Assembly (NCBI GenBank): GCA_002069965.1
Contig: MWCI01000006.1
Span: forward strand, 888-64,887
From: Spirochaetes bacterium ADurb.Bin218
Lineage (GTDB): Bacteria; Spirochaetota; UBA4802; UBA5550
DNA: 64,000 bases
Direction of reading: 5' to 3'
The position numbers were made by a program, and so were the translations under genes. This document shows, in pieces, positions 1,197 to 22,380 of this stretch. The notes below the pieces were generated by a model. It saw nothing but the letters and a program-made list of their open reading frames with translations. It did no database searches and had not been told where the DNA came from. How positions within the stretch are numbered: the stretch's first letter is position 1; each line of letters starts with the position of its first letter.

Positions 1197-2687
1197 TTAC
1201 AATAATCTCTCAATGGCGCTTTTCCATAGATCGATTTGCTTATCTCTTTCCTGCTTATTCATAACAGGCTCAAATCTAACGCATACTTTATTTTCTGAGG
1301 CAATCTCATCAATACTTTTGAAAACACCTGTTGCAACTCCTGCAAGGTATGCAGCACCAAGGGCTGTTGATTCTCTATTTTCTGGAATCAAAACAGGCAC
1401 ACCAAGAATGTCTGACTGAAACTGCATCAAGAATCTGTTACTGGTTGCTCCTCCATCAACACGAAGCTCATGAATCTTCTTCCCGGTGTCCTGTTCCATT
1501 GCATGGATAACATCCATGGATTGAAATGCAATAGACTTTAAGGCTGCTCTTACGATTTGTTCCCTCGTTGTGTCCCTTGTAAGTCCAAATATTGCACCTC
1601 TTGCATCCATCTTCCAGTAGGGTGCACCAAGACCAACAAAGGCTGGCACAAAAACAACCTCATCCTCTTTGTTGAACTGAGAGTTTGCCATACCTTCGGA
1701 TTCAGTTGCATTATCAAAAAATTTCATATAATCCCTGAGCCATTGCATTACAGCCCCACCAATAAAAACAGAACCTTCAAGGGCATAGATTGGATTTCCA
1801 TAGTTATCAGGGGTAAGTGTTGTAAGCAGACCATTGGAGGATATAATAAAATCCTCTCCATTGTTTAAGAGCATAAAACATCCTGTGCCGTAGGTGTTTT
1901 TTGTTCCTCCTGGAAAAACGCAATTCTGCCCAACCATAGCAGCCTGTTGATCCCCAGCCATTCCTCCAATAGGAATCCCATCTGGAAGTCCAGGGAAGCC
2001 CAATGTTGTGCCATAGTTATATGCAGAGGGGTAGACCTCTGGTAAAATATTCATTGGAATGCCAAGAATATCACATAATTCATCAGACCATTTTTTTTGC
2101 TTGATATCAAATATAAGAGTTCTTGAGGCATTTGTAAAATCAGTGGCATGGACTTTGCCTCCTGTGAGATTCCAGAGGATCCAGGTGTCAATAGTTCCGA
2201 ATTTGAGCCTGTCGTTTTTTGCAAGAGTTCTTGCCTCAAGGACATTATCAAAAAGCCACTTAATCTTTGTTCCTGAAAAATAAGCATCAATTACAAGGCC
2301 TGTCTTTTCTCTGAATTTGCTTTCATATCCAAGGCTTTTAAGTTGATTGCATATATCAGAAGTTCTTCTGCATTGCCATACAATAGCCTTATGTATTGGC
2401 TTGCCTGTAGAGGAATCCCATAACAAGGTGGTTTCCCTTTGATTTGTTATGCCAATTGCTATTGCAGACTCTGGATTTAAATTGCCTTTTTTTATGGCCT
2501 CTGGTATAAGAATCTTTATTGAATCCCATATCTCAAGAGCATCATGCTCTACCCATCCAGATTTAGGAAAGTATTGAGGGAACTCTCTGTAAACGTTAGA
2601 AAGGACTTTTCCTCTTTCATCAAAACAGAAAACGCTATTGCCAGTTGTACCAAGGTCTATAGATATTATATATTTTTTATCCTCCAT
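1197..2687 (-). CDS. glpK: glycerol kinase
   Basis: 496-aa FGGY-family kinase with N-terminal IISIDLGTTGNS and full-length similarity to GlpK. Confidence 0.9.
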   Translation of the reverse strand: MEDKKYIISIDLGTTGNSVFCFDERGKVLSNVYREFPQYFPKSGWVEHDALEIWDSIKILIPEAIKKGNLNPESAIAIGITNQRETTLLWDSSTGKPIHKAIVWQCRRTSDICNQLKSLGYESKFREKTGLVIDAYFSGTKIKWLFDNVLEARTLAKNDRLKFGTIDTWILWNLTGGKVHATDFTNASRTLIFDIKQKKWSDELCDILGIPMNILPEVYPSAYNYGTTLGFPGLPDGIPIGGMAGDQQAAMVGQNCVFPGGTKNTYGTGCFMLLNNGEDFIISSNGLLTTLTPDNYGNPIYALEGSVFIGGAVMQWLRDYMKFFDNATESEGMANSQFNKEDEVVFVPAFVGLGAPYWKMDARGAIFGLTRDTTREQIVRAALKSIAFQSMDVIHAMEQDTGKKIHELRVDGGATSNRFLMQFQSDILGVPVLIPENRESTALGAAYLAGVATGVFKSIDEIASENKVCVRFEPVMNKQERDKQIDLWKSAIERLL

Positions 2688-2891
2688 GAATAACTCCTTT
2701 TAAATCCGTAAATTATAACCAGTAACAGACTTACTCTTTTCTATTATTATAAAGTTTTAAATTTTTATGTCAAATAATTAAACTATCTAAAAAATATTTT
2801 TTGCTGCATTTTAAGTTTTTTAAAAAAGCTCTTGCCATAAATATATAAAATCTTAACTTATAATCACTTGATCTTTTATAAAAGGTAAAAT

Positions 2892-3932
2892 ATGCTTTCC
2901 AATATATTCAAAGGCAAAGAACCAATTTTTGTTGCAGAGATAGGTCTTAATCACAATGGCAACATTGATGAGGCAATCGCTATGATTAAGGCAGCAGCAG
3001 AATGTGGAGCAGATGCTGTAAAGTTTCAGACCTTTATTCCTGAGCTTATGGTATCACCCTTTGCTTCTTCAATGTTGAATGAAGAAGCTTTTATGAAAAA
3101 AGACTATGACACAATAAATTTTTTTAAAAAATTTACTTTTTCAAAAGAAGAGTGGCTCAGAATACAAGAGGCAGCTAAAAAATATAACGTTGAGTTCTTC
3201 TCTGCAGCATTTGATATCCCCTCTGTGGAACTCCTTGAAGAGTTAAATGTCAGGCTTTATAAAATTGCTTCCTCTGAGGTTACAAATATACCTCTCCTTG
3301 AAAAAATAGGCCACACAAAAAAGCCAGTGATTATGTCCACTGGAATGGCCTGTGAGGAGGAGATATTATCTGCAATTGAAACTCTCTCAAAAAACGGCAC
3401 AGGGGATATAGTTTTGCTTCATTGTGTTTCACTTTATCCACTTGAAGACTCTGAGGCAAACTTAAGAAGAGTCTTATCTTTAAAAGAAAAGTTTAAACTT
3501 CCAGTAGGATTATCAGATCACAGCAGAGATCACTATGCTGCAATGATAGCCTCTGCCTTTGGTGCAGTTGTTATAGAAAAGCATTTTAAACTACATAGTA
3601 AACATCTTTGCCCTGATAGTGAGGTTTCCCTTGAACCAGAAAGCTTTTCAGAGATGATAGCCCTTGCAAGGAGAGGATTTGCTCTTGCTGGCAGCGGAGA
3701 GATTAAGACTCAAGGCCGGGAGTGTAATACTGCCAGAGGTGCCAGGCGAAGCCTTTTTGCTGCAAAAAAAATTCCTGCAGGAAAAGATCTTTCAATGGAT
3801 GATGTCATTGCTCTCCGGCCTGGGACAGGGATACCTGTGCAGGAAATATATAAATACAGGGGTAAAAAAGTTTTGACAGATATTGATGAGGGTTTACCTC
3901 TCAAGGGTGAATATTTTGAACAGGAGCAATAA
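2892..3932 (+). CDS. NeuB-family sialic-acid-type synthase (N-acetylneuraminate / pseudaminate / legionaminate synthase)
   Basis: N-terminal IAEIGLNHNGNIDEAIAMIKAAAECGADAVKFQTF (NeuB TIM barrel) plus a C-terminal SAF/antifreeze-like domain. Confidence 0.8.
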   Translation: MLSNIFKGKEPIFVAEIGLNHNGNIDEAIAMIKAAAECGADAVKFQTFIPELMVSPFASSMLNEEAFMKKDYDTINFFKKFTFSKEEWLRIQEAAKKYNVEFFSAAFDIPSVELLEELNVRLYKIASSEVTNIPLLEKIGHTKKPVIMSTGMACEEEILSAIETLSKNGTGDIVLLHCVSLYPLEDSEANLRRVLSLKEKFKLPVGLSDHSRDHYAAMIASAFGAVVIEKHFKLHSKHLCPDSEVSLEPESFSEMIALARRGFALAGSGEIKTQGRECNTARGARRSLFAAKKIPAGKDLSMDDVIALRPGTGIPVQEIYKYRGKKVLTDIDEGLPLKGEYFEQEQ

Positions 3933-4454
3933 ATGATGCGCAAAAGAAAAGTGATTGCACTGCTTGTGCTTTGCCTGGCTTTGACTCAGTGCACAACATG
4001 GTATAGACTTACAAGAAAAGACAGCAAACTCTGGAATCAAAGTGATATTGCTATTCTTACCTCAGTTGCAGAGGCAATAGAATTTAGAGCTGGTTTTGAT
4101 CCGTATTTAGATTTAGATTATATCTACATGGCGGGTAACTTTACAAAAGAAGAGATAGCAGTAAAAGAAAAAAAGTTGAAAGAGGTTATAACTTCATTTA
4201 AAAGTGAAGATGTAATTGCCTTTTACGAAAAAGTTTTTTCCATTGTTGAAATTTTGAAATGGTATGCCGAAGATTATAAAAATGATGAAGAATGGAATGA
4301 GGCAACTTACATAGAAAAATATCTGTTACCAGATACAGAGAAATTTTCTGAAATGCTTGAAAAAAATATCATCATAATAAATCCTGATTATTCAAAAATT
4401 ATTGAGGAGAGAAAAAGAGTCATCAAAGACAGAGTCAAAAAAGATCTGGATTGA
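3933..4454 (+). CDS. hypothetical lipoprotein
   Basis: Signal peptide with lipobox LALTQC. The start codon overlaps the upstream stop (taaATGATG). Confidence 0.5.
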   Translation: MMRKRKVIALLVLCLALTQCTTWYRLTRKDSKLWNQSDIAILTSVAEAIEFRAGFDPYLDLDYIYMAGNFTKEEIAVKEKKLKEVITSFKSEDVIAFYEKVFSIVEILKWYAEDYKNDEEWNEATYIEKYLLPDTEKFSEMLEKNIIIINPDYSKIIEERKRVIKDRVKKDLD

Positions 4455-13054: not shown

Positions 13055-13991
13055 CCATAAGGCGTTTTCTGAAATTGCTTATTTTTTTTATATCCTCAGG
13101 GGTTGTTCTGCAGCAACCCCCAATGAGCCTTGCCCCTTTATTATACCATTCCTGACTTGCCATAGAAAAGTCCACACATCTTTCTTGTTTTGTCCAACAA
13201 TTGCATGTTGTATCAAAAATCTCACCTGAGTTTGGATAAACAATGATAGGTATTGTAGTATCTGTATTTGCCTCTTCAATAAGAGAGGATATAAATTCTG
13301 GATCAGAGCAGTTTATTCCCACTGCCGCAAGATTTTTATAGACTAATAAGGCTTTTACACAGTCGCTAAAAAGCTTACCATCTGGTATAGATTTTTTATC
13401 TTTTGCTGTAAAGGAAATCCAATAGTGTATGTTGTTATAGGACTTCATTATCTCTGCAACAGCAAGGGCCTCATCAAGACGGGGAAAGGTTTCAAAGGCA
13501 AGGAAATTTGCTCCTGCCTCATGAAGTAGCTCAATTCTGCTTTCATAAAAATTTCTGTAGTCAGCAAAAGTGAGAGTGTAATTTCCACTGTATTCAGAGC
13601 CATTAGCAAGATAGGCTCCATAGCATCCAATTGAAGCAGCTATAAAAGGGTATGGCCTGTAGGTTAACTGATTTTTTTCTATAAACTCATCAATGGATTT
13701 CAGTGCAAGAGTTACAGAGCTCTGAATTAATTTTTTTGCTTCCTTTACAGTGAAACCCTCAGAGACAAAGCCATCAATTGTTGCCTGATATGATGCAGTT
13801 GTTATGCAGTCTGCTCCTGCCTCAAGGTAGGAAAGATGAATATTTTTGATAGCATCGGGATTTTCAGAAAGAAGCTTAGCAGACCATAACCTGCTTTTGA
13901 GCTTAAATCCAGCACGCTCAAGCTCAGTTGCCAGAGCTCCATCAAGAATAACAAAGGGATATTCTTTTAGTATGTTTTTTATGTAGTTCAT
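13032..13991 (-). CDS. mmuM: homocysteine S-methyltransferase
   Basis: Pfam S-methyl_trans motifs: ILDGALATELE, LYLEAGADCITTASYQAT, GINCS, GGCCRTTPEDI (zinc-binding Cys). Confidence 0.8.
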   Translation of the reverse strand: MNYIKNILKEYPFVILDGALATELERAGFKLKSRLWSAKLLSENPDAIKNIHLSYLEAGADCITTASYQATIDGFVSEGFTVKEAKKLIQSSVTLALKSIDEFIEKNQLTYRPYPFIAASIGCYGAYLANGSEYSGNYTLTFADYRNFYESRIELLHEAGANFLAFETFPRLDEALAVAEIMKSYNNIHYWISFTAKDKKSIPDGKLFSDCVKALLVYKNLAAVGINCSDPEFISSLIEEANTDTTIPIIVYPNSGEIFDTTCNCWTKQERCVDFSMASQEWYNKGARLIGGCCRTTPEDIKKISNFRKRLMATTPLYF

Positions 13992-13993
13992 AA

Positions 13994-14090
13994 TAGTTTT
14001 ATTCCTTAACTTTTTTAGCCAGGAAATGCTTTAACTCAGCGGCTTTTTTTGCTGAGTGGTTACAGTAAAAATAATTTTTATAAATTATAA
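13994..14090 (+). repeat. degenerate partial copy of the MITE-like element
   Basis: TTATTCCTTAACTTTTTTA, then a GC hairpin (CTCAGCGGCTTTTTTTGCTGAG), then TTACAGTAAAAAT. It resembles the left TIR, core hairpin and TTACACTAAAAAT box of copies A-E. The right TIR is not recognisable. Confidence 0.3.
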
Positions 14091-14377
14091 GTATAGTTTA
14101 TAAATAAATCTTTGAAAAGTCTATAAAAATTGGGGATCTTTGCAAGTTAATGCCTTAACCTTCATATTGAATAACATATTTGAATATATCAGCCCTCTTT
14201 AGCTCAGGAAATGATAATATTATTTATTACAGTGAAAAGTATTTTTAAGAATTATTATTGAAAACTTTATGATGCTCTTATTGTATTTCAGGAGCATAAC
14301 TTGAAATTTTTATTGACATTTGCCAAAAAAAGACACTAATTTAGTTTTAAAAAATAATCATAATAAAAGAGGTTTTT

Positions 14378-14812
14378 ATGAAAAAAACAATTACCCTAAT
14401 ATTTGTAGGATGGGTAGTTTTTTTGTTTTCTGGCTGTACTCATCCACAGATAATTACTGCACAATATGTGGATAAACCAGTGATAGTTGGTCCCTATTGG
14501 AAGGTAGGTGGAAAACTTGAAAACTATGAAGAACTTAAAAAAAATAAGGAATTAAGAAAATTTAATTCTGAAGTTGAAAGAACCATAACCACTTCAACTC
14601 AGCAAAATGGAAGTTATCAAACAACCAACACACAATACTATAGTGTTGATGCAGATAACATAAGCAAAGACATACTTATGCAAAATCCATCGGATAATGA
14701 ACTAATTTTGATAAAAAGATGCTTTCTTGGTTCCTACCTTATGCTTGCACCTGGAGGTTCTATAATTACTTCCTTCGGTGGAGTAGAAGGTGTAATTGCA
14801 CCAAAGCCATAA
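14378..14812 (+). CDS. hypothetical lipoprotein (1 of 4 in tandem)
   Basis: Signal peptide with lipobox LFSGC. The C-terminal segment is hydrophobic. Confidence 0.55.
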   Translation: MKKTITLIFVGWVVFLFSGCTHPQIITAQYVDKPVIVGPYWKVGGKLENYEELKKNKELRKFNSEVERTITTSTQQNGSYQTTNTQYYSVDADNISKDILMQNPSDNELILIKRCFLGSYLMLAPGGSIITSFGGVEGVIAPKP

Positions 14813-14832
14813 TCAAATTTAAGGAGATCTTT

Positions 14833-15276
14833 ATGAAAAATTTAGCTAAAGCTATTGTATTCTTTACAATAATTTCCATATTCTTTCTGCTGACTGCCTG
14901 TGCTGGAGCAAGGGGTAGCATTGTTCTTAAAGATGTAAATCACCCTGTATCAATGTCTCCTTATATATATGATAAAAATGGGCAGGTGTTATCAATAAAT
15001 AAGGGCCTTACATATAATGGTGGATTTTTGATAGAAAAAACATACTATGGAACATTTTATAGCCTTATAAAATTGTCTGGAGATGATGATGTAAATCAGC
15101 AGATCAATGATGCAGTAAAAGCCTCAAATTCCGATGCTGTAGTTAATTTGCATTATGTGGTAGATCAGGGAGGAACAAATGGTTGTTGCCCACTAACATG
15201 GCTTCCAATATGGCCAGGAACAGCTAAGGTTTTTATTATGGGCGACATGGTGAAAATATCAAAGGGGGGAAAATAA
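14833..15276 (+). CDS. hypothetical lipoprotein (2 of 4)
   Basis: RBS AGGAG followed by ATG at 14833. Lipobox LLTAC. The ORF-track start at 14719 overlaps the upstream gene and is unlikely. Confidence 0.55.
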   Translation: MKNLAKAIVFFTIISIFFLLTACAGARGSIVLKDVNHPVSMSPYIYDKNGQVLSINKGLTYNGGFLIEKTYYGTFYSLIKLSGDDDVNQQINDAVKASNSDAVVNLHYVVDQGGTNGCCPLTWLPIWPGTAKVFIMGDMVKISKGGK

Positions 15277-15277
15277 T

Positions 15278-15595
15278 ATGAATAACATAATATGCAAACT
15301 ATTGATTTTATCTATTGGGCTATTGGCAATTGGTTGTGTAACAACTCCACCACCACCTCCAGAGATGACAGAGGCTGAAAAGGCTGTTATGTTAATTGAA
15401 GGATTTGATAGTAAGGATCTCCCAGAAATAAAAAGAATCATAAATACATGCACACCTGTTGGGGCTATTGAATATATACCAGGTCAGTATGTAGCTCGCA
15501 AAAGAGCTGTGGAGCTAAAGGCCAATACAGCCCATCTCTATTACTATGATGATTTAAGGCAAGCCTCTGTGGTTAGATTCTGGCAATGTAAATAA
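15278..15595 (+). CDS. small lipoprotein with poly-Pro linker, RcsF-like C-terminal motif (3 of 4)
   Basis: Lipobox AIGC, then TTPPPPPE, then ARKRAVELKANTAHL...VRFWQC. It is paralogous to the next gene. Confidence 0.5.
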   Translation: MNNIICKLLILSIGLLAIGCVTTPPPPPEMTEAEKAVMLIEGFDSKDLPEIKRIINTCTPVGAIEYIPGQYVARKRAVELKANTAHLYYYDDLRQASVVRFWQCK

Positions 15596-15616
15596 TTTTA
15601 ATTTCAGGTAAAATCA

Positions 15617-16231
15617 ATGGAAAAACAAAATATGCCTTTTGTAAGAAAAAATTTTTTATTTTTCTCTCCTGTGGGACTTGCAGCTTTTTTGTTTATGCAG
15701 GCATGTGTCTCCACCCCACCACCACCACCGCCGCCAATGCCTGAGGAGGTGAAGCACATCAAGGTTGTTTACGGATGGCCTGTTACAAGAGAACTTGAAG
15801 AGACCTGTAAATCTGTAAGGATGGAAAAGGTATCTCGATACAATGATTGGTGGGCTATTCACCGTAGAGCTAAGGATCTAAATGCAAATACAATGCAGTT
15901 TGTTTATGAGTGCCAATATGATTGTGATGTCAGATTCTGGAACTGTGGGGAAAAATTTCTCCCTGATACACAAAAAGATGCTACCAAAATTTTTGGAGAT
16001 CTCATTGGTAAGATAGATAAAATTCAGGGGAATGAGATTATAATTAGTGGAGAAAAAATGGCTGAAAAGGTCACCATGGGAAAAATTCTTGCTGTAGCAA
16101 CAGAAAATGATATGGTCTATATTGAAGTAACTTTTCCTATGATGACTGTAGCAAAATGCAAAATTGTCAAAGGCTCAATGGCAAATCTAAAACCTGGATT
16201 GAAGGTTTATACTAAAGGCAAAAAGGATTAG
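15617..16231 (+). CDS. lipoprotein with poly-Pro linker, RcsF-like domain plus C-terminal extension (4 of 4)
   Basis: Lipobox MQAC, then STPPPPPPPMPEE, then HRRAKDLNANTMQFVYECQYDCDVRFWNC with four Cys. The extra C-terminal domain is about 90 aa. Confidence 0.5.
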   Translation: MEKQNMPFVRKNFLFFSPVGLAAFLFMQACVSTPPPPPPPMPEEVKHIKVVYGWPVTRELEETCKSVRMEKVSRYNDWWAIHRRAKDLNANTMQFVYECQYDCDVRFWNCGEKFLPDTQKDATKIFGDLIGKIDKIQGNEIIISGEKMAEKVTMGKILAVATENDMVYIEVTFPMMTVAKCKIVKGSMANLKPGLKVYTKGKKD

Positions 16232-16379
16232 AAATATATAGAAAACTCATCCTGTATAAAAAAACCTGAAGCTTTCGCTTCAGGAAACAGGAGAGTACAA
16301 TGAAAAAGTTTACTTTTGATATTAAAGAACAAAAAAATTACCATAAGTTACAAAAATCCCGCAGAGTATTAAAGTTTTT

Positions 16380-16506
16380 TAGTAATTATTTCTAAATAAA
16401 TTTTTAGTGTAAAATCAAGAAAATATCATCCTTGCAGCCGAAGGCTGAGGGGATGATAGATTATTTTTATTTTAAAAGTTTAAAAGAAGTTAAGGAATAA
16501 ATACTG
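16380..16506 (-). repeat. MITE-like dispersed element, copy B (inverted orientation)
   Basis: The reverse complement aligns to copy A: CAGTATTTATTCCTTAACTTCTTTTAAA...ATCATCCCCTCAGCCTTCGGCTGCAAGGATGAT...TTTACACTAAAAATTTATTTAGAAATAATTACTA. Confidence 0.6.
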
Positions 16507-16583
16507 AAAGCTAAAAGAGGGGGAGGCAACCAAGCGGGAAACCCACCTGGTTGCCAATATATATTCAAACATGATTTATAAGC

Positions 16584-17930
16584 TTATGCATCTTGCTTGT
16601 TAGTTCTTCTCCAGATTCTCATCTTTTCTGCCTCAGAAATGAGCCACTCCCTAAAATCTGGATGAGCAATGTTTATTAAAGCCTCTGCTCTTTGCCATGT
16701 GGATTTTCCTTTAAACATGGCAACTCCATATTCTGTTATTACATAGTGAGAAATAGATCTTGGAACAGTAACTATAGCCCCTGGCTTTAATGTAGGGACA
16801 ATCCTTGATTTAACTGTTCCATCTTTGTCTGTGTAGGTGGAGGTAATAGAAATAATTCCCTTGCCACCGGTTGAGTTAAAAGCTCCAAATATAAAATCAA
16901 GCTGACCACCTGTTCCAGAGACATGCCTCCATCCTGCTGATTCTGAGCAGATCTGAGTAAAGAGATCCACCTCAACAGCATTGTTTATTGCTGTAACCTT
17001 TGGATTAAGGCATATTATTCTTGGATCATTTACATAGTTAACTGGATAAGAAGCACATGTTGGGTTGAGATGCAAAAAGTCATAAAGCTTTTTGGTTCCC
17101 ATTGCAAAGGTGTATGTCATCTTAAAGTGATCTATTTTCTTTTTGCTGCCTGTAACCTTGCCGCTCTCATATAAGCTAACACATGAATCAACAAGCATCT
17201 CTGTATGAATCCCCAGGTTTTTGAGATCGCTCTCTGCCAGCAATTGCCCCATGAGATTTGGCAGTGCACCTATGCCCAGTTGAAGTGTTGCGCCATCCTC
17301 AATCTCTTTCATTATGTAGCTTGCAATTTTTCTATCAATATCACGGGGCGGTGCAGGTGGAACCTCAACAAGGGGATGATTATCTCCTTCAACTATATAG
17401 TCAACATTTGATATATGGATTGATTCAAAGTTGCCTCCCAGACAATATGGGACATTGTTGTTTACCTCAACAACAATCTTTTTGGCCTTGCTTAAGTTTG
17501 CTCCTGTAACTGAATTTGCAAGACCGAAATTAAAGTAGCCATTGTTATCCATAGGAGCAGTTGTTATAAAGGCAACATCGGGGCTCAAATATTTTCTGAC
17601 AATTCGTGGAACCTGATGGTATGTAATTGGAATATAGCTGCATTTGTTTTCATCATGGAGCTTTCTGGAAACTCCGCCAAAGTGATAATCATTAACAACT
17701 GCATGTTTTCCCTCTGGATCCTTTTCTATAACCTTAGGAGATTTTGTGAAGCATATTCCTCTGATTTCAACATTGTTGAGTTCGTGTATTCTATCAGCCA
17801 GAGCGCTATCAAGAGCCCATGGGAAAAGGGCAAATTCTCCATAAAAAACATGATTCCCGGATTCAACAACTTCAACAGCTTCCTGGGCAGTTCTAAGTTT
17901 TGATCTGTATTCATTCATAAAGCGACTCAT
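16584..17930 (-). CDS. acetyl-CoA hydrolase/transferase family protein (4-hydroxybutyrate / succinyl-CoA:acetate CoA-transferase-like)
   Basis: At 448 aa the length fits, with full-length family similarity. It is a paralog of 48912..50270. Confidence 0.8.
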   Translation of the reverse strand: MSRFMNEYRSKLRTAQEAVEVVESGNHVFYGEFALFPWALDSALADRIHELNNVEIRGICFTKSPKVIEKDPEGKHAVVNDYHFGGVSRKLHDENKCSYIPITYHQVPRIVRKYLSPDVAFITTAPMDNNGYFNFGLANSVTGANLSKAKKIVVEVNNNVPYCLGGNFESIHISNVDYIVEGDNHPLVEVPPAPPRDIDRKIASYIMKEIEDGATLQLGIGALPNLMGQLLAESDLKNLGIHTEMLVDSCVSLYESGKVTGSKKKIDHFKMTYTFAMGTKKLYDFLHLNPTCASYPVNYVNDPRIICLNPKVTAINNAVEVDLFTQICSESAGWRHVSGTGGQLDFIFGAFNSTGGKGIISITSTYTDKDGTVKSRIVPTLKPGAIVTVPRSISHYVITEYGVAMFKGKSTWQRAEALINIAHPDFREWLISEAEKMRIWRRTNKQDA

Positions 17931-18118: not shown

Positions 18119-18772
18119 TTAATTGAAAACAATGGCACGTTCAAAAAAAAGTACAGTTTCTTCAATAATTTTATCCATAGTCTCGGAACTCTTGCTGCCC
18201 AGTTTTGAGTCATGAAGCTGAGTAATTCCATAAACAGAACCCATTATTATATTTGCTGTTGCTCGTGCATCGCTTTCTCTAAAAAGTCTCCTTGTTTGAG
18301 CAGCAATAATTATACTCCTCATCTCATCCATTATGGCTCTTGATACATCCCTTATGGCGCTATCTGTCTTTTTATCCAGTGACCACAACATGCCAGCCTG
18401 TTGAAAAAGCTGTCCAATTCGAAACATGTGAGGGTCCTCTTTGTATTTATTAAAAAAAACATTTGCAATATCCCTTAAGAGTTTCCTCCCAGTGCTATAG
18501 ATATTTAATTGAAGAGTTAAGTTTATCTCTTCCATTTGCTTCAAACAGTCCTCAAGGACAGGAATTACAAGGGAAAAGTAAAGATCCTCCTTTGTAGGAA
18601 AGAACTTATAAATGGTAGGTTTACTAAGAGCTGCTTCATAGGCTATTTCATCCATTGTAGTTTTTAAAAAGCCTTTTTGGGAAAAAATCCTTTTTGCAGC
18701 AGCAAGTATATCATCTACCTTTTTTTCCTGCTCCTTCAGCTTCCTGTCTTTAAGTTTATTCTTGATATCCAT
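18119..18772 (-). CDS. TetR/AcrR family transcriptional regulator
   Basis: N-terminal HTH AAKRIFSQKGFLKTTMDEIAYEAALSKPTIYKFFPTKEDLYFSL. Confidence 0.85.
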   Translation of the reverse strand: MDIKNKLKDRKLKEQEKKVDDILAAAKRIFSQKGFLKTTMDEIAYEAALSKPTIYKFFPTKEDLYFSLVIPVLEDCLKQMEEINLTLQLNIYSTGRKLLRDIANVFFNKYKEDPHMFRIGQLFQQAGMLWSLDKKTDSAIRDVSRAIMDEMRSIIIAAQTRRLFRESDARATANIIMGSVYGITQLHDSKLGSKSSETMDKIIEETVLFFERAIVFN

Positions 18773-18787
18773 TTGTATACAAATAAA

Positions 18788-18837
18788 AATTACTGTCAGT
18801 AATTTATTTACTTATAGTAAGTTTTTTACTATAAGTA
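18788..18837. promoter_or_regulatory. two palindromes immediately upstream of tetR (candidate autoregulatory operators)
   Basis: ATTACTG-t-CAGTAAT at 18788..18802. TTACTTATAGTAA-gtttt-TTACTATAAGTAA at 18807..18837 (13-bp arms). Confidence 0.45.
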
Positions 18838-18889
18838 AAAATAGTCAAGAATTATCAAAAAATTTTTTAAAAAATTTCATCAATTTAAT

Positions 18890-19009
18890 TCAGTATTTAT
18901 TCCTTAACTTCTTTTAAAATAAAAATACTTTATTATCCCTGCTGCTTTTGGCTGAGGGGATAATAGTTCTGTCATTTTATAAAAAAAATTACATTTAGGA
19001 ATAATTACT
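18890..19009 (+). repeat. MITE-like dispersed element, copy C
   Basis: CAGTATTTATTCCTTAACTTCTTTTAAAATAAAAATACTTTATTATCCC...GGCTGAGGGGATAAT...TTACATTTAGGAATAATTACTA. Confidence 0.6.
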
Positions 19010-19033
19010 AAAAATATTTTTAGTATAAGAACC

Positions 19034-20905
19034 TTACCTTAGAGATGAGAAGGAAATGAAAAAGGATACACCTTCATTTAGAGATAGTATATACTTTCCC
19101 CTTAGCTGTTTTATAAAGGCATCAATAAGTTGAAAACCAAGATTGCCTTTATCAGGGAATGAAACTCCATCGGGGAAACCAATACCATTATCACTGAAGC
19201 TAAGCATGTATTGTTGATTTGCAGTGGAGTAAAAAAGTGCGATATGAATCTCTCCACTTCTATCCAGGGGAAAGGCATGCTTAAGAGAGTTGGTAAAGAG
19301 CTCATTTATAAGTTGAGCAAGGGGAATTGCTGTGGTGATGTTAAATGATATATCAGAGATCTCAAGAGTAACTTTTATTTTTGTCTTATCGATTTTATAT
19401 GAAGAGAGCAATATTGGCACAAGGGAATGGATGTAGTTATTAAAATTTATTGAAGAGAAGTTTTCTGAATTGTAAAGTTTTTCCTGAATAAGAGCCATTA
19501 TCCTCACTCGATTTTGGCAGTCATTGAGAACGCTTCTGGCTAGATCATCACTTTGTCTTGCAGATTGAAGACTTATGAGGCTTGTTATAATCTGCATATT
19601 GTTTTTTACTCTATGGTGGACCTCTTTGATTAGATGTTCTTTTTCAATAATTGTTTGTCTGAGGCTTATCTCATTATTTCTTCTTTCAATTGCCATTGCC
19701 ACACTTTGCACAAGACCGCGGAGAAAGTTAAGTATATCCTCATTAAAAAATTCTTTTTCTCTGCTAAAACAGATAAAAAAGCCAGGTGTATCTCCTCCAA
19801 CAAAAAAGGGCAGAACTGCTTGAGCTTTATAGATTCCTTTTCTTAGACAAAAGCAATTCTCGGAATAATTATCATTGTTTTCTATTGATGAGTAATATCC
19901 CTTATTTTTTTTATCATCTAAGATTAAAGATGGATTTTCTATTCCAAAGCATGGATAATAAATATCCCCAGAAGATAAAATTTTGTTAATCAAAGGGCAG
20001 CCTTTTTCTATTTCATTTGTAAGTGACTCATCATCTGCTTTGCACTCATAGAGAGAAAACCCCTTAGGACCTTTTATAAAAATAAGAAGCAAATCTATGC
20101 CTGTATGCAATTTCACTAAATTTAAAATCTCTTTTATTACAGAAGGTTCTCCTCCGTGAATATTCAATAGCTCAAGAACATTAATAATCAGGGATTGGCG
20201 TTCGTTGAATGTATTTTTTACTTTTTCTGACTCTCTGAAGGATGTCATATCCCACATGGTCACTATTGTATTTTCTATTTTTTCTTCACTTAAAACAGGA
20301 TAGAAGTTAACCTCAAAAAATCTAAGACCTTCAGATGTTGTAATTGCCAGGGGCAGTGAATTATTTTCCCCTGTGAAGGAACTAAAGAGAGCATCAAAAA
20401 ACATCTTGGAATCAGAAGTCTCTGCTATTATATCTTTGAAGAAATATGCACTTGAGGCAGAGGGGAAAAATTCCTTGAACTTGAGGTTGCTCAGGATTAT
20501 ATTAAAGGAAGAGTCAACAATTGCCACTGGCTCTTTTATTGAGGCTAAAATGTCACGATATTTTATTAGCGTGTGAGTTTTCTTTAGTCGAATTCTATGG
20601 TAGGCAACTACAAATCCAATGGCTAAAAACATAGTGGATCGAATTAAATTCTGGAAAACAAAATTTTTACCGCCAATAAAAAAATCCGGGACTATTAAAG
20701 CAGCACATAGAGGGATAGCAACAAATAAAAACTTATAATTCCACCATAAAGCAGATAGAATGATCGGCACATAAAAAAAATGTGTATAAACCACACTCTG
20801 TTGAGAGAGCTTAAAATAATAGAGAAGAAAAGCGCAAACAATCAGAGTAAAAATAATTATTGTTAGCTTTAATTTTTTCATTTTATGCCAGATTTTTTCT
20901 GGCAT
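19034..20905 (-). CDS. membrane sensor histidine kinase (HisKA_2-type) with PAS/GAF-like sensor region
   Basis: N-terminal TM helices. HisKA_2 signature HHRVKNNMQIITSLISLQ. HATPase_c GEIHIALF...FSDNGIGFP. Confidence 0.75.
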   Translation of the reverse strand: MPEKIWHKMKKLKLTIIIFTLIVCAFLLYYFKLSQQSVVYTHFFYVPIILSALWWNYKFLFVAIPLCAALIVPDFFIGGKNFVFQNLIRSTMFLAIGFVVAYHRIRLKKTHTLIKYRDILASIKEPVAIVDSSFNIILSNLKFKEFFPSASSAYFFKDIIAETSDSKMFFDALFSSFTGENNSLPLAITTSEGLRFFEVNFYPVLSEEKIENTIVTMWDMTSFRESEKVKNTFNERQSLIINVLELLNIHGGEPSVIKEILNLVKLHTGIDLLLIFIKGPKGFSLYECKADDESLTNEIEKGCPLINKILSSGDIYYPCFGIENPSLILDDKKNKGYYSSIENNDNYSENCFCLRKGIYKAQAVLPFFVGGDTPGFFICFSREKEFFNEDILNFLRGLVQSVAMAIERRNNEISLRQTIIEKEHLIKEVHHRVKNNMQIITSLISLQSARQSDDLARSVLNDCQNRVRIMALIQEKLYNSENFSSINFNNYIHSLVPILLSSYKIDKTKIKVTLEISDISFNITTAIPLAQLINELFTNSLKHAFPLDRSGEIHIALFYSTANQQYMLSFSDNGIGFPDGVSFPDKGNLGFQLIDAFIKQLRGKYILSLNEGVSFFISFSSLR

Positions 20906-20944
20906 AAAAAATTTTCTATGTCAATAAAATTATCTTTCTGCTAC

Positions 20945-21211
20945 TTAGAAAAATGCAACTGCGACATTGGTTTTATTCTCCAGAAGCTTTTTGGTTTCCT
21001 CTGGAATTCCTTTATATATAACCTTTTTGTTATCCAGCATCGCAAATCTTTGAGCAATGCAAATTGTTTTAATAAGCCCTGGCTCAAAGGTGTCCAGTTT
21101 GGAGAAATCAAGGACAAGATGGCTATCATTGCATCCTATGCTTCTGACTCTGCGAAAAAACTCAGCATTTGCTTCAAACTCAATTGCTTCAAAAAAATCG
21201 CCTCTTACCAT
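20945..21211 (-). CDS. STAS-domain anti-sigma-factor antagonist-like protein
   Basis: The 88-aa SpoIIAA-like fold signature LVLDFSKLDTFEPGLIKTICIAQRFAMLDNKKVIYKGIPEETKKLLE. Confidence 0.7.
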   Translation of the reverse strand: MVRGDFFEAIEFEANAEFFRRVRSIGCNDSHLVLDFSKLDTFEPGLIKTICIAQRFAMLDNKKVIYKGIPEETKKLLENKTNVAVAFF

Positions 21212-21222
21212 ATTCCCCCCTG

Positions 21223-21603
21223 TTAATTCATTTTTTTATAATCAATTATTGTATTTGCAAGCTCATCAAAGTCATGGGACTTATCAAAAAAGTAATCAGC
21301 TCCAAACTCTCTACATTTTTCAATATAGTAGTTATCATAATAATTTGTAAGCATGGCAACTGGCACACAGGGACAGCGCCTCTTGAGATTCTTTAGTATG
21401 TCTATGCCGCTTCTTTTGTTAAGCTTAATATCAAGAACCACAAAATCAGGATTTAATCCTCCAATAATTTCCCAATCCTCATCACCTGTAAGGCCAAGAA
21501 CGCTTACACCATCAAAAGAAGAAAGCATTCTTATGAGCCTTTCTCTTATCATGGCAGAATCATCAACAATCAGTATCTTCATGTCATTTACCAAAATATC
21601 CAT
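21223..21603 (-). CDS. single-domain response regulator (CheY-like receiver)
   Basis: Receiver-domain residues in KILIVDDSAMIRERL...FVVLDIKLNKRSGIDILKNLK. The true start may be the internal Met at MKILIVDD. Confidence 0.8.
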   Translation of the reverse strand: MDILVNDMKILIVDDSAMIRERLIRMLSSFDGVSVLGLTGDEDWEIIGGLNPDFVVLDIKLNKRSGIDILKNLKRRCPCVPVAMLTNYYDNYYIEKCREFGADYFFDKSHDFDELANTIIDYKKMN

Positions 21604-21744
21604 GATAGTTTATAAACCATGGATGTAAAAAACTCAATCAGACAGAGGATATTTTTTTGCGGGATTTTATCTATTTATAATGACAGAATAAAGATGACAA
21701 AAAGGAAGTAAAACCTTACCTCTTTGTAGGATAAAAGAGGACAG

Positions 21745-22380
21745 CTATATATCAAGGAGATTGTTCTTTATTACGTAATGTGTAATTTCTGAATTATTTT
21801 TCATGTTCATTTTTTCAAGGAGTCTCTGCCTGTATGTACTTACAGTTTTTACGCTTAAAAAAAGCTCTGAGGCAATTTCTGAAACTGTTTTTCCCGAGGC
21901 TATCATACACATAACCTGAAACTCTCTGTCTGTTAGAGATTCATGGGGAAGCTGAGTCCCTCCTCCTGCAAGGGCCTCTGCAAGGGTTTCTGCAAGAGTT
22001 GGGCTTATATATTTGCCACCTGAGGCAACCTTTTTTATGGCAACAACAAGATTTTCACCTGCTGAATCCTTTGTAACGTATCCGGATGCTCCTGCCTTAA
22101 TAGTTCTTACTGCATATTGATCCTCTGAGTGCATACTTAAAACAATTATAGGGAGATTGGGCTTTATTGTCTTTATATGTTTTATAGCCTCTATTCCGCT
22201 TATGCCAGACATCTTGATATCAAGAAGCACAACGTCATAATCATTTTTCTTTACAAGCTCTATGAGGTGTTCTCCGCTTTTTGCCTCCCCTGTAACTTCC
22301 ATCTCAGGATCATCTGCAATAAGCTGTTTTAACCCAGCTCTAACTATGTCGTGATCATCTGCTATAACTATCCTTATCAT
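21745..22380 (-). CDS. NarL/LuxR-family response regulator (REC + LuxR HTH)
   Basis: MIRIVIADDHDIVRAGLKQLI...LTDREFQVMCMIASGKTVSEIASELFLSVKTVSTYRQRLLEKM. Confidence 0.9.
   Translation of the reverse strand: MIRIVIADDHDIVRAGLKQLIADDPEMEVTGEAKSGEHLIELVKKNDYDVVLLDIKMSGISGIEAIKHIKTIKPNLPIIVLSMHSEDQYAVRTIKAGASGYVTKDSAGENLVVAIKKVASGGKYISPTLAETLAEALAGGGTQLPHESLTDREFQVMCMIASGKTVSEIASELFLSVKTVSTYRQRLLEKMNMKNNSEITHYVIKNNLLDI

Follow-up and report, generated by a model that had tools for sequence, protein, structure and literature searches.

Three families of one fold group, RcsF, DUF1471 and DUF4156, are the described systems nearest to the locus considered here, a tandem cluster of four small lipoprotein genes (g1 to g4) in a 64,000-nucleotide stretch of DNA from the uncultured Spirochaetota bacterium ADurb.Bin218 (GenBank assembly GCA_002069965.1, contig MWCI01000006.1, positions 888 to 64,887 of the forward strand). 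This whole stretch is called the window below, and its numbering is used throughout. RcsF (PF16358) is the lipoprotein that senses outer-membrane stress for the Rcs phosphorelay, in which it works with IgaA and RcsC/D/B. Its function needs a 30-residue linker that threads a porin (PMC7917084). The DUF1471 fold (YdgH-BhsA-McbA, PF07338; YahO, SrfN and YdgH among its members) has been published as the one most similar to RcsF, and the DUF1471 proteins, which are soluble, periplasmic, Cys-free and restricted to Enterobacteriaceae, have that fold without a sensor role (PMC4092069). Relatives of DUF4156 (PF13698) are widespread in Proteobacteria, and literature searches on the Escherichia coli member, YjeI, turned up proteomic mentions only. 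A first-pass annotation of the window had likened g3 and g4 to the signalling domain of RcsF and suggested that they might be envelope-surveillance lipoproteins. Our profile comparisons place the g3 family elsewhere, as a divergent DUF4156-like branch that current hidden Markov model (HMM) libraries miss, and not as RcsF. The overall reading, which we favour with moderate confidence, is that of an operon of four lipoproteins acting together as an envelope assembly, with g3 and the N-terminal domain of g4 forming such a branch.

The g3/g4 domain and its relation to DUF4156

The coding features are these:
14378-14812, plus strand: g1, 144 aa, lipobox ...LFSGC, lipid Cys20
14833-15276, plus strand: g2, 147 aa (MKNLAK...LLTAC), lipid Cys23
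15278-15595, plus strand: g3, 105 aa, lipobox ...LAIGC, lipid Cys20
15617-16231, plus strand: g4, 204 aa, lipobox ...FMQAC, lipid Cys30
15617-15949, plus strand: N-terminal part of g4, with signal peptide, Cys30, PPPPPPPMPEE stalk and g3-paralogous domain
15950-16231, plus strand (stop codon included; 15950-16228 without it): C-terminal module of g4, a six-stranded β-barrel in the model, residues ~112-204

In all four proteins a basic n-region and a hydrophobic core are followed by the lipobox Cys, which is invariant among the orthologs of each, and the open reading frames (ORFs) are those of the four same-strand lipoprotein genes originally described. The paralogy of genes 3 and 4 that had been proposed is borne out as well: BLASTP of g3 against g4 gives an expectation value (E) of 3e-5 at 31% identity, profiles of the two sets of orthologs align by hhalign at 96.8% (E 2.2e-10, 88 columns), and the sequence blocks quoted for the two proteins are present in them. 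On these alignments g3 and the N-terminal domain of g4 are paralogs. In a HMMER search against 1.84 billion representatives, the g4 profile picked up only a few further small lipoproteins with this domain (P0012, P0020, P0081, P0108, P0122, P0126 and P0156). The family signature, in g3 numbering wherever residues are given, is C-x-x-x-P-P-x-[LM]-[TP]-E ... C-[KT]-x-[VI]-G ... R-A-x-E-L-x-A-[ND]-T-[AV]-Q ... V-R-F-W-x-C, and the lipid C20, G42, C58, A77, R100, W102 and C104 are invariant in 15 family members. Orthologs of the cassette proteins are about 60% identical, with many invariant residues.

The g3 protein consists of a signal peptide (residues 1-19), the lipid Cys20, a Pro stalk (21-31) and the DUF4156-like α/β domain (32-105), and it has only two Cys after the lipid Cys, C58 and C104. 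The shared domain of g4 (residues ~46-111) has four, C64, C99, C103 and C110, and C181 lies further on. Only the pair equivalent to C58/C104 is invariant across the family, since g3 and most relatives have two Cys, and C99/C103 are missing from the g4-like protein P0012. The four-Cys pattern in which a likeness to RcsF had been seen is thus not a property of the family, and the suggested check of Cys conservation in orthologs finds one pair kept and the second not. The poly-Pro tethers fared unevenly too. Orthologs of g4 keep PPPP-[LM]-P-[DE]-E, whereas the long poly-Pro run of g3 is specific to the window, its orthologs having C-x-T-V-x-P-P-V/E-L-T-E; what is found family-wide is the shorter motif P-P-x-[LM]-[TP]-E. 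The tether measures 11 residues in g3 (Cys20 to the helix at 32) and ~18 in g4 (Cys30 to the strand at 49), not ~30.

The Pfam model PF13698 (gathering threshold 28.9 bits) scores E. coli YjeI as a full-length member at 115 bits and leaves g3, g4 and seven relatives unmatched even with E<=10 allowed. Profiles were therefore compared with profiles. Because a search for YjeI homologs listed only sequences at least 76% identical, which are unusable for a profile, the DUF4156 profile was built from YjeI and five divergent proteins (29-40% identity) found by tblastn in plasmid records (the DUF4156 and RcsF profiles together draw on loci L018-L025 and on E. coli YjeI and RcsF). The g3-family profile matches it by hhalign at 91.8% (E 7.4e-7), with a range of 91.8-92.8%, E 4e-7 to 7e-7 and 57-72 columns. 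In the global alignment of 72 columns the lipid Cys, strand 1, the Cys before strand 2, the helix-2/strand-3 motif and the C-terminal [YW]-x-C all coincide, and the columns of the lipid Cys, the pre-strand-2 Cys and the C-terminal Cys are invariant in both the g3-family and the DUF4156 alignments. We performed the following controls on this match. In 200 column shuffles it did not exceed 4.7%, with a score of at most 18.8 compared with 38.9 for the real profile, and the reversed profile gave 0.2%. The g1 and g2 profiles reach at most 3% against the same targets and so serve as a control for specificity. The match persists at 84.5% when the stalk and both Cys are removed, and it lies between 57 and 93% in sub-samples of the family.

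Members of DUF4156 resemble g3 in being small lipoproteins of ~85-100 mature residues, in the strand-1 motif [KQ]-x-V-[RK]-[IV]-V, in the pre-strand-2 Cys within C-x-x-[IV]-G and in the C-terminal [YW]-x-C. The helix-2/strand-3 motif is A-x-E-L-[GK]-A-N-T-[AV] in the g3 family and A-x-x-L-G-G-N-V-V in DUF4156; where the former has L-[GKN]-A-[ND]-T and the latter L-G-G-N, the Asn/Asp position is kept and Gly is present in some members only. The two also differ in several respects. The 13-residue helix 1 of g3 is replaced in DUF4156 by a short loop, g3 does not have the ~17-residue insert that DUF4156 has before helix 2, the Pro-rich stalk belongs to the g3 family only, and g3 always follows g1 and g2, whereas the canonical DUF4156 genes examined stand alone; the idea that DUF4156 genes of Proteobacteria might have lipoprotein partners was dropped on this ground. 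The fold group and the nearest family of the g3 branch are known ones, and what is new in it is the helix-1 insertion, the Pro stalk, the obligatory g1/g2 partners and a paralog fused to an undescribed barrel.

One of the plasmid-borne DUF4156 frames, on a pESI-like plasmid of Salmonella Infantis (CP148783.1, 108098-108388), has an in-frame stop near its N-terminus; the annotated coding sequence is shortened to 67 aa, the gene is present on more than 100 Salmonella plasmids, and the stop may reflect a pseudogene or a sequencing error.

Predicted fold and comparison with DUF1471 and RcsF

An AlphaFold2 model of g3, built from an alignment of 11 sequences, has a mean predicted local distance difference test score (pLDDT) of 87.6, with values above 95 from residue 31 onward, and shows a β-α-β-α-β-β arrangement (strand 38-41, helix 45-57, strand 59-67, helix 69-79, strand 84-91, strand 96-103). 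The g4 model (pLDDT 77) has the same N-terminal arrangement followed by a separate C-terminal β-barrel, in agreement with the extra C-terminal domain noticed in the first-pass annotation. When the g3 model was compared with the Protein Data Bank (PDB) by Foldseek, the top five matches were all DUF1471 structures with weak but consistent scores: YahO (2ma4; E 0.45, probability 0.84, target template-modelling score 0.61), the C-terminal domain of YdgH (4evu), SrfN (2ma8), STM0082 (2jna) and the N-terminal domain of STM1478 (2m2j). DUF1471 shares with g3 a small first strand and a helix followed by β-α-β-β; unlike the DUF1471 proteins, g3 is a Cys-containing lipoprotein, it has no Pfam match, and by hhalign it reaches at most 1.9% against BhsA. 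RcsF is not among the top 50 PDB matches of the g3 model.

Direct comparison with RcsF gives little more. The PF16358 model (gathering threshold 29 bits), for which E. coli RcsF at 174 bits and Aeromonas RcsF at 61 bits are positive controls, has no match, even at E<=10, among g3, g4 and seven relatives. By hhalign the g3 family gives 0.6-2.3% against E. coli RcsF, whose sequence was verified against 6T1W. Comparisons with the single RcsF, YjeI and BhsA sequences all fall below 3%, and the calibrating pairs RcsF-YjeI and RcsF-BhsA are equally blind; small profiles were built instead because single-sequence hhalign has no power on these calibrators. Against an RcsF profile of four sequences (E. 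coli, Klebsiella, Proteus and Aeromonas) the g3 family reaches 4.1-4.4%, with only a 16-residue helix-2/strand-3 motif aligned. The ARKR...KAN likeness noted originally falls on the same helix-2/strand-3 element (ARKR...KANAV) at which hhalign aligns both families, and the broader resemblance to RcsF appears to hold for the fold class, as seen by AlphaFold2 and Foldseek by way of DUF1471, and not for family membership (no PF16358 match, hhalign ~4%, RcsF outside the top 50).

Like g3 and g4, RcsF is a lipoprotein in which a Pro-containing stretch follows the lipid Cys; its domain appears to be of the β-α-β-α-β-β class predicted for theirs and is disulfide-bonded, as that of the g3 family may be. 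It differs in its linker (30 residues against ~11-18), in having two non-consecutive disulfides against one family-wide Cys pair, and in its phylum, and the cassette lacks any Rcs or IgaA context among its neighbours at eight loci. DUF4156 itself matches the RcsF profile by hhalign at 68% (E 4.8e-5, 65 columns), and E. coli RcsF has a weak Pfam cross-match to DUF4156 (E 0.1), so that the DUF4156 and RcsF families look remotely related. These comparisons suggest a chain in which DUF4156 is nearest to the g3 family and is itself remoter kin of RcsF, with DUF1471 sharing the fold.

Aeromonas caviae KAM479 (NZ_AP026896.1, 1445752-1446000) encodes a lipoprotein that scores 61 bits against PF16358, where the cut-off is 29; it is 34.5% identical to E. 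coli RcsF and keeps the four Cys but not the long Pro-rich linker. The RcsF family is thus not confined to Enterobacterales, and with DUF4156 widespread in Proteobacteria the earlier statement that RcsF-like sensors are not described outside that order was too strong.

The probable operon, the predicted g4 barrel and the conserved trio

The four genes are read as a single operon, with gaps of 20, 1 and 21 nt between successive genes and a Shine-Dalgarno-like motif upstream of each start. For g2 the listed ORF (14719-15276) carries a spurious upstream extension; the true start is the ATG at 14833, which is preceded by AAGGAG and whose equivalent is the start called for g2 in all related contigs. 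Two further features border the genes:
13992-14377, plus strand: putative promoter region, AT-rich, 386 nt, intergenic, 5' of g1
16245-16296, no strand assigned: stable hairpin, 14 nt 3' of the g4 stop

The upstream region, which presumably holds the operon promoter, lies divergently from a minus-strand S-methyltransferase gene and contains sigma-70-like hexamer pairs at 14245-14273 and 14330-14358 that are weak consensus matches only. An Rfam scan of 13900-16700 matched no family at E<=1, and a riboswitch in the long leader was rejected on this ground. The hairpin (folding free energy -23.4 kcal/mol, z = -6.0) is where the operon probably ends, and a convergent transcript may end there too. 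The inner stem (16265-16284) scores as a terminator whose T-run is on the minus strand, and the outer stem pairs with the Shine-Dalgarno (AGGAG) of a putative 31-aa ORF, MKKFTFDIKEQKNYHKLQKSRRVLKFFSNYF, at 16300-16395.

Both g1 and g2 belong to well-conserved families of their own. The motif I-T-[AS]-Q-Y-V-D-K-P-V-x-x-G-P-Y-W-K follows directly on the lipid Cys of g1, and g2 is marked by C-A-G-A-R-G, N-H-P-V-S-M-S-P-Y, D-G-[IV]-V-N and L-P-I-W-P-G...G-D-I-V-K. Neither has a sequence match in Pfam, NCBIfam or the PDB, and Pfam and the PDB are also empty for eight divergent members of the g1 family. By hhalign the g1 and g2 profiles show no similarity (at most 3%) to g3, DUF4156, RcsF, BhsA or Bor, the g2 profile staying below 1% against DUF4156, RcsF, BhsA and g3. 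The notion that g2 might be Bor-, TRL- or YbjQ-like or related to g3, which came from its D-G-[IV]-V-N motif, was rejected at hhalign values below 1%. There is a weak N-terminal resemblance between g1 and g2 (73%), due in part to the signal peptide. More generally, Pfam, NCBIfam, PADLOC and PHROGs scans of g1-g4 and divergent relatives gave nothing above signal-peptide-level noise, and PDB sequence-profile searches with five alignments of the cassette proteins gave no match.

The C-terminal module of g4 is about 85 aa long, forms a separate six-stranded barrel in the AlphaFold2 model and is covered by no Pfam model. In the HMMER search ~170 protein clusters (50% identity) matched this part of g4 only. 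In them the module follows type-I signal peptides in proteins with FGE-sulfatase, C-type lectin, Lcl_C or other domains, stands at the C-terminus of WG-repeat (WG_beta_rep) proteins, or stands alone. These relatives (P0013-P0160) carry the motif G-x-I-x-x-I-x-G-x-E-I...V-T-F-P-M-Q-T-x-A-K-C-x-[IV]-x-S-G-S...K-x-G-x-x-V-Y, and the module deserves a family definition of its own. Its fusion elsewhere to lectin, WG-repeat and FGE-sulfatase domains makes it probably a promiscuous secreted binding or oligomerisation adaptor. By Foldseek its structure also matches the barrel at the N-terminus of F1/V1/FliI ATPases (E 1e-3 to 1e-2, 70-80 columns, root mean square deviation ~2-3 Å). It shares with the 'crown' of the F1/V1 α/β subunits and FliI a six-stranded barrel of ~75 residues and the rhythm G-x-[IV]-x-x-[IV]-x-G-x-x-[IV]-x-[IV]...G-x-x-[LV]; unlike the crown it is secreted or lipid-anchored and has no ATPase domain attached. 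The likeness is probably a fold analogy only, and as an analogy it suggests a packing or oligomerisation module.

The order g1-g2-g3-g4 is kept in at least four different flanking contexts. In the window and in L001-L003 the cassette lies between S-methyltransferase and acetyl-CoA hydrolase genes; in L004-L008 and L012 the flanks are unrelated to these, being STAS and rhodanese-oxidoreductase (pyridine-nucleotide oxidoreductase) genes in L004-L006 and other genes in the remaining three. In the very divergent loci L009, L013 and L016, and in the fragment L015, genes like g1, g2 and g3 occur in the same order and the fourth gene is different or absent. The carriers of cassette or trio are metagenomic genomes that range from 36 to 65% GC, the upper value being that of L013, where the trio lies beside rpsB-tsf; a GTDB search with close g2 orthologs returned one genome, a metagenome-assembled genome of Spirochaetota. 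Since the divergent loci keep g1-g2-g3 and not g4, comparison of the loci indicates that the ancestral, widely conserved unit is a three-lipoprotein operon, to which g4 is a later addition in the lineage of the window. That order and spacing are kept while canonical DUF4156 genes stand alone marks the trio as a specific, selected arrangement.

No regulator, kinase, IgaA-like gene or transporter is consistently adjacent to the cassette at the eight loci compared, and a search for further paralogs of the cassette genes elsewhere in the window found none. In the window itself the minus strand at ~18119-22300, 2-6 kb downstream, encodes a TetR regulator, a HisKA_2 histidine kinase, an 88-aa ORF, a stand-alone receiver and a receiver-GerE regulator. 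In L009 the g2 homolog (635-1507) carries a ~110-aa C-terminal β-rich (Ig-like) extension that recurs in the 393-aa lipoprotein encoded by the following gene (1875-3056), and again at the N-terminus of an OMP_b-brl protein (3230-4279). The sharing of this extension with a lipoprotein and an outer-membrane β-barrel protein points to the outer membrane, and hints that L009 is an outer-membrane-linked extended locus.

A proposed envelope assembly and its alternatives

In the reading that we favour the four lipid-anchored proteins would act together as an envelope-associated assembly, probably anchored in the outer membrane and facing the periplasm; the outer-membrane association is suggested by the L009 neighbours, and co-function of g1-g4 as a complex by their conserved order. 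The g4 gene would be a lineage-specific duplicate of g3 that gained the β-barrel module, and this barrel would be a binding or oligomerisation adaptor. A short Pro-rich stalk would hold the DUF4156-like domain ~10-18 residues off the membrane, and a single disulfide, joining the Cys that precedes strand 2 to the C-terminal one, would probably staple the domain. We infer the C58-C104 disulfide because the start of strand 2 would adjoin the end of the last strand in a dodecin-like sheet order, in which we take these two strands to be antiparallel neighbours, so that C58 would be brought near C104. A structural or envelope-maintenance role is in our judgement more likely than RcsF-style phosphorelay sensing, because the stalk is not long enough to pass through a porin in the way that the 30-residue linker of RcsF does (PMC7917084), because only one Cys pair is conserved, because there is no syntenic signalling partner, and because the DUF1471 fold relatives are not sensors.

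Several points weigh against this interpretation. Physical interaction among g1-g4 would follow from synteny only. Inner-membrane, outer-membrane or surface placement is unreadable from a spirochaete sequence. The link to DUF4156 depends on small profiles of 6 and 11-16 sequences that were assembled by hand, the Pfam PF13698 model matches no member of the g3/g4 family, and the Foldseek matches of g3 are weak (best E 0.45, probability 0.84). Missing linked signalling genes are also compatible with sensing; in E. coli, too, rcsF is unlinked to rcsCDB.

A first alternative, which we consider unlikely though worth keeping in view, is that these are four surface-exposed spirochaetal lipoproteins of adhesin or nutrient-binding type, displayed on Pro tethers, with the g4 barrel binding a ligand and with no periplasmic complex. 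The source is an uncultured Spirochaetota bacterium, and Spirochaetota export many lipoproteins to the surface. Elsewhere the g4 module occurs in secreted proteins, where its fusion partners are C-type lectin, WG-repeat and Lcl_C domains, and the g2 homolog of L009 has an Ig-like extension in common with an outer-membrane protein. However, the trio also occurs in a 65% GC genome, probably of a different lineage, the tethers are very short, and ~60% identity among orthologs with many invariant residues is unlike fast-evolving surface antigens.

It is less probable still, and in our view improbable, that g3 and g4 are functional analogues of RcsF, that is, lipid-anchored stress sensors that report outer-membrane or peptidoglycan damage to a signalling partner. 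They appear to have the RcsF fold class with the same order of secondary-structure elements, they are lipoproteins with a Pro-rich segment after the lipid Cys, and their nearest family, DUF4156, is remotely similar to RcsF (68%; Pfam cross-match E 0.1). They also have a conserved Cys pair, the C-x3-C-x6-C of g4 recalling C109-x8-C118-x5-C124 of RcsF, and the window has genes for a histidine kinase and two response regulators at a distance of 3-6 kb. Other points tell against this reading. The same fold occurs in DUF1471 proteins that are not sensors (PMC4092069), and the g3 family itself gives 0.6-4.4% against RcsF by hhalign, no PF16358 match and no RcsF among the top 50 Foldseek matches. The linker has ~11-18 residues where RcsF needs 30 (PMC7917084), and the orthologs of g3 do not keep its poly-Pro run. 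P0012 lacks the second Cys pair, and the kinase and regulator neighbourhood is absent at every other cassette locus. A sensor function for g3 and g4 is pure speculation.

More of a long shot is the notion that g1-g2-g3 are a self-contained envelope-surveillance module outside Proteobacteria, with g3 as its sensing head and g1 and g2 as its membrane partners; if it were true, the orphan DUF4156 proteins, including E. coli YjeI, would gain a sensing function, and RcsF would be one specialised offshoot of an ancient sensor fold. That the four lipoproteins are functionally unrelated and merely adjacent, with no common pathway, is scarcely credible: g1, g2 and g3 have no detectable homology to one another and no partner system is known, but their order and 1-21 nt spacing are kept from 36% to 65% GC genomes between unrelated flanks, while canonical DUF4156 genes of Proteobacteria stand alone.

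These results hold no great surprise for a specialist. Three protein families and one promiscuous β-barrel module are defined, none of which is covered by current domain libraries, and the DUF4156/RcsF/DUF1471 fold group is now linked to an orphan family of lipoproteins from uncultured Spirochaetota and other bacteria. RcsF looks less exclusive to Enterobacterales than had been supposed, since the fold, a related family and, in Aeromonas, a PF16358 member are found more widely. The practical value of the cassette lies for now in annotation, in the generation of hypotheses and as an entry point into DUF4156 biology: the fixed g1-g2-g3 order supplies partner proteins, and with them a handle on the envelope role of this fold that the stand-alone yjeI does not offer.

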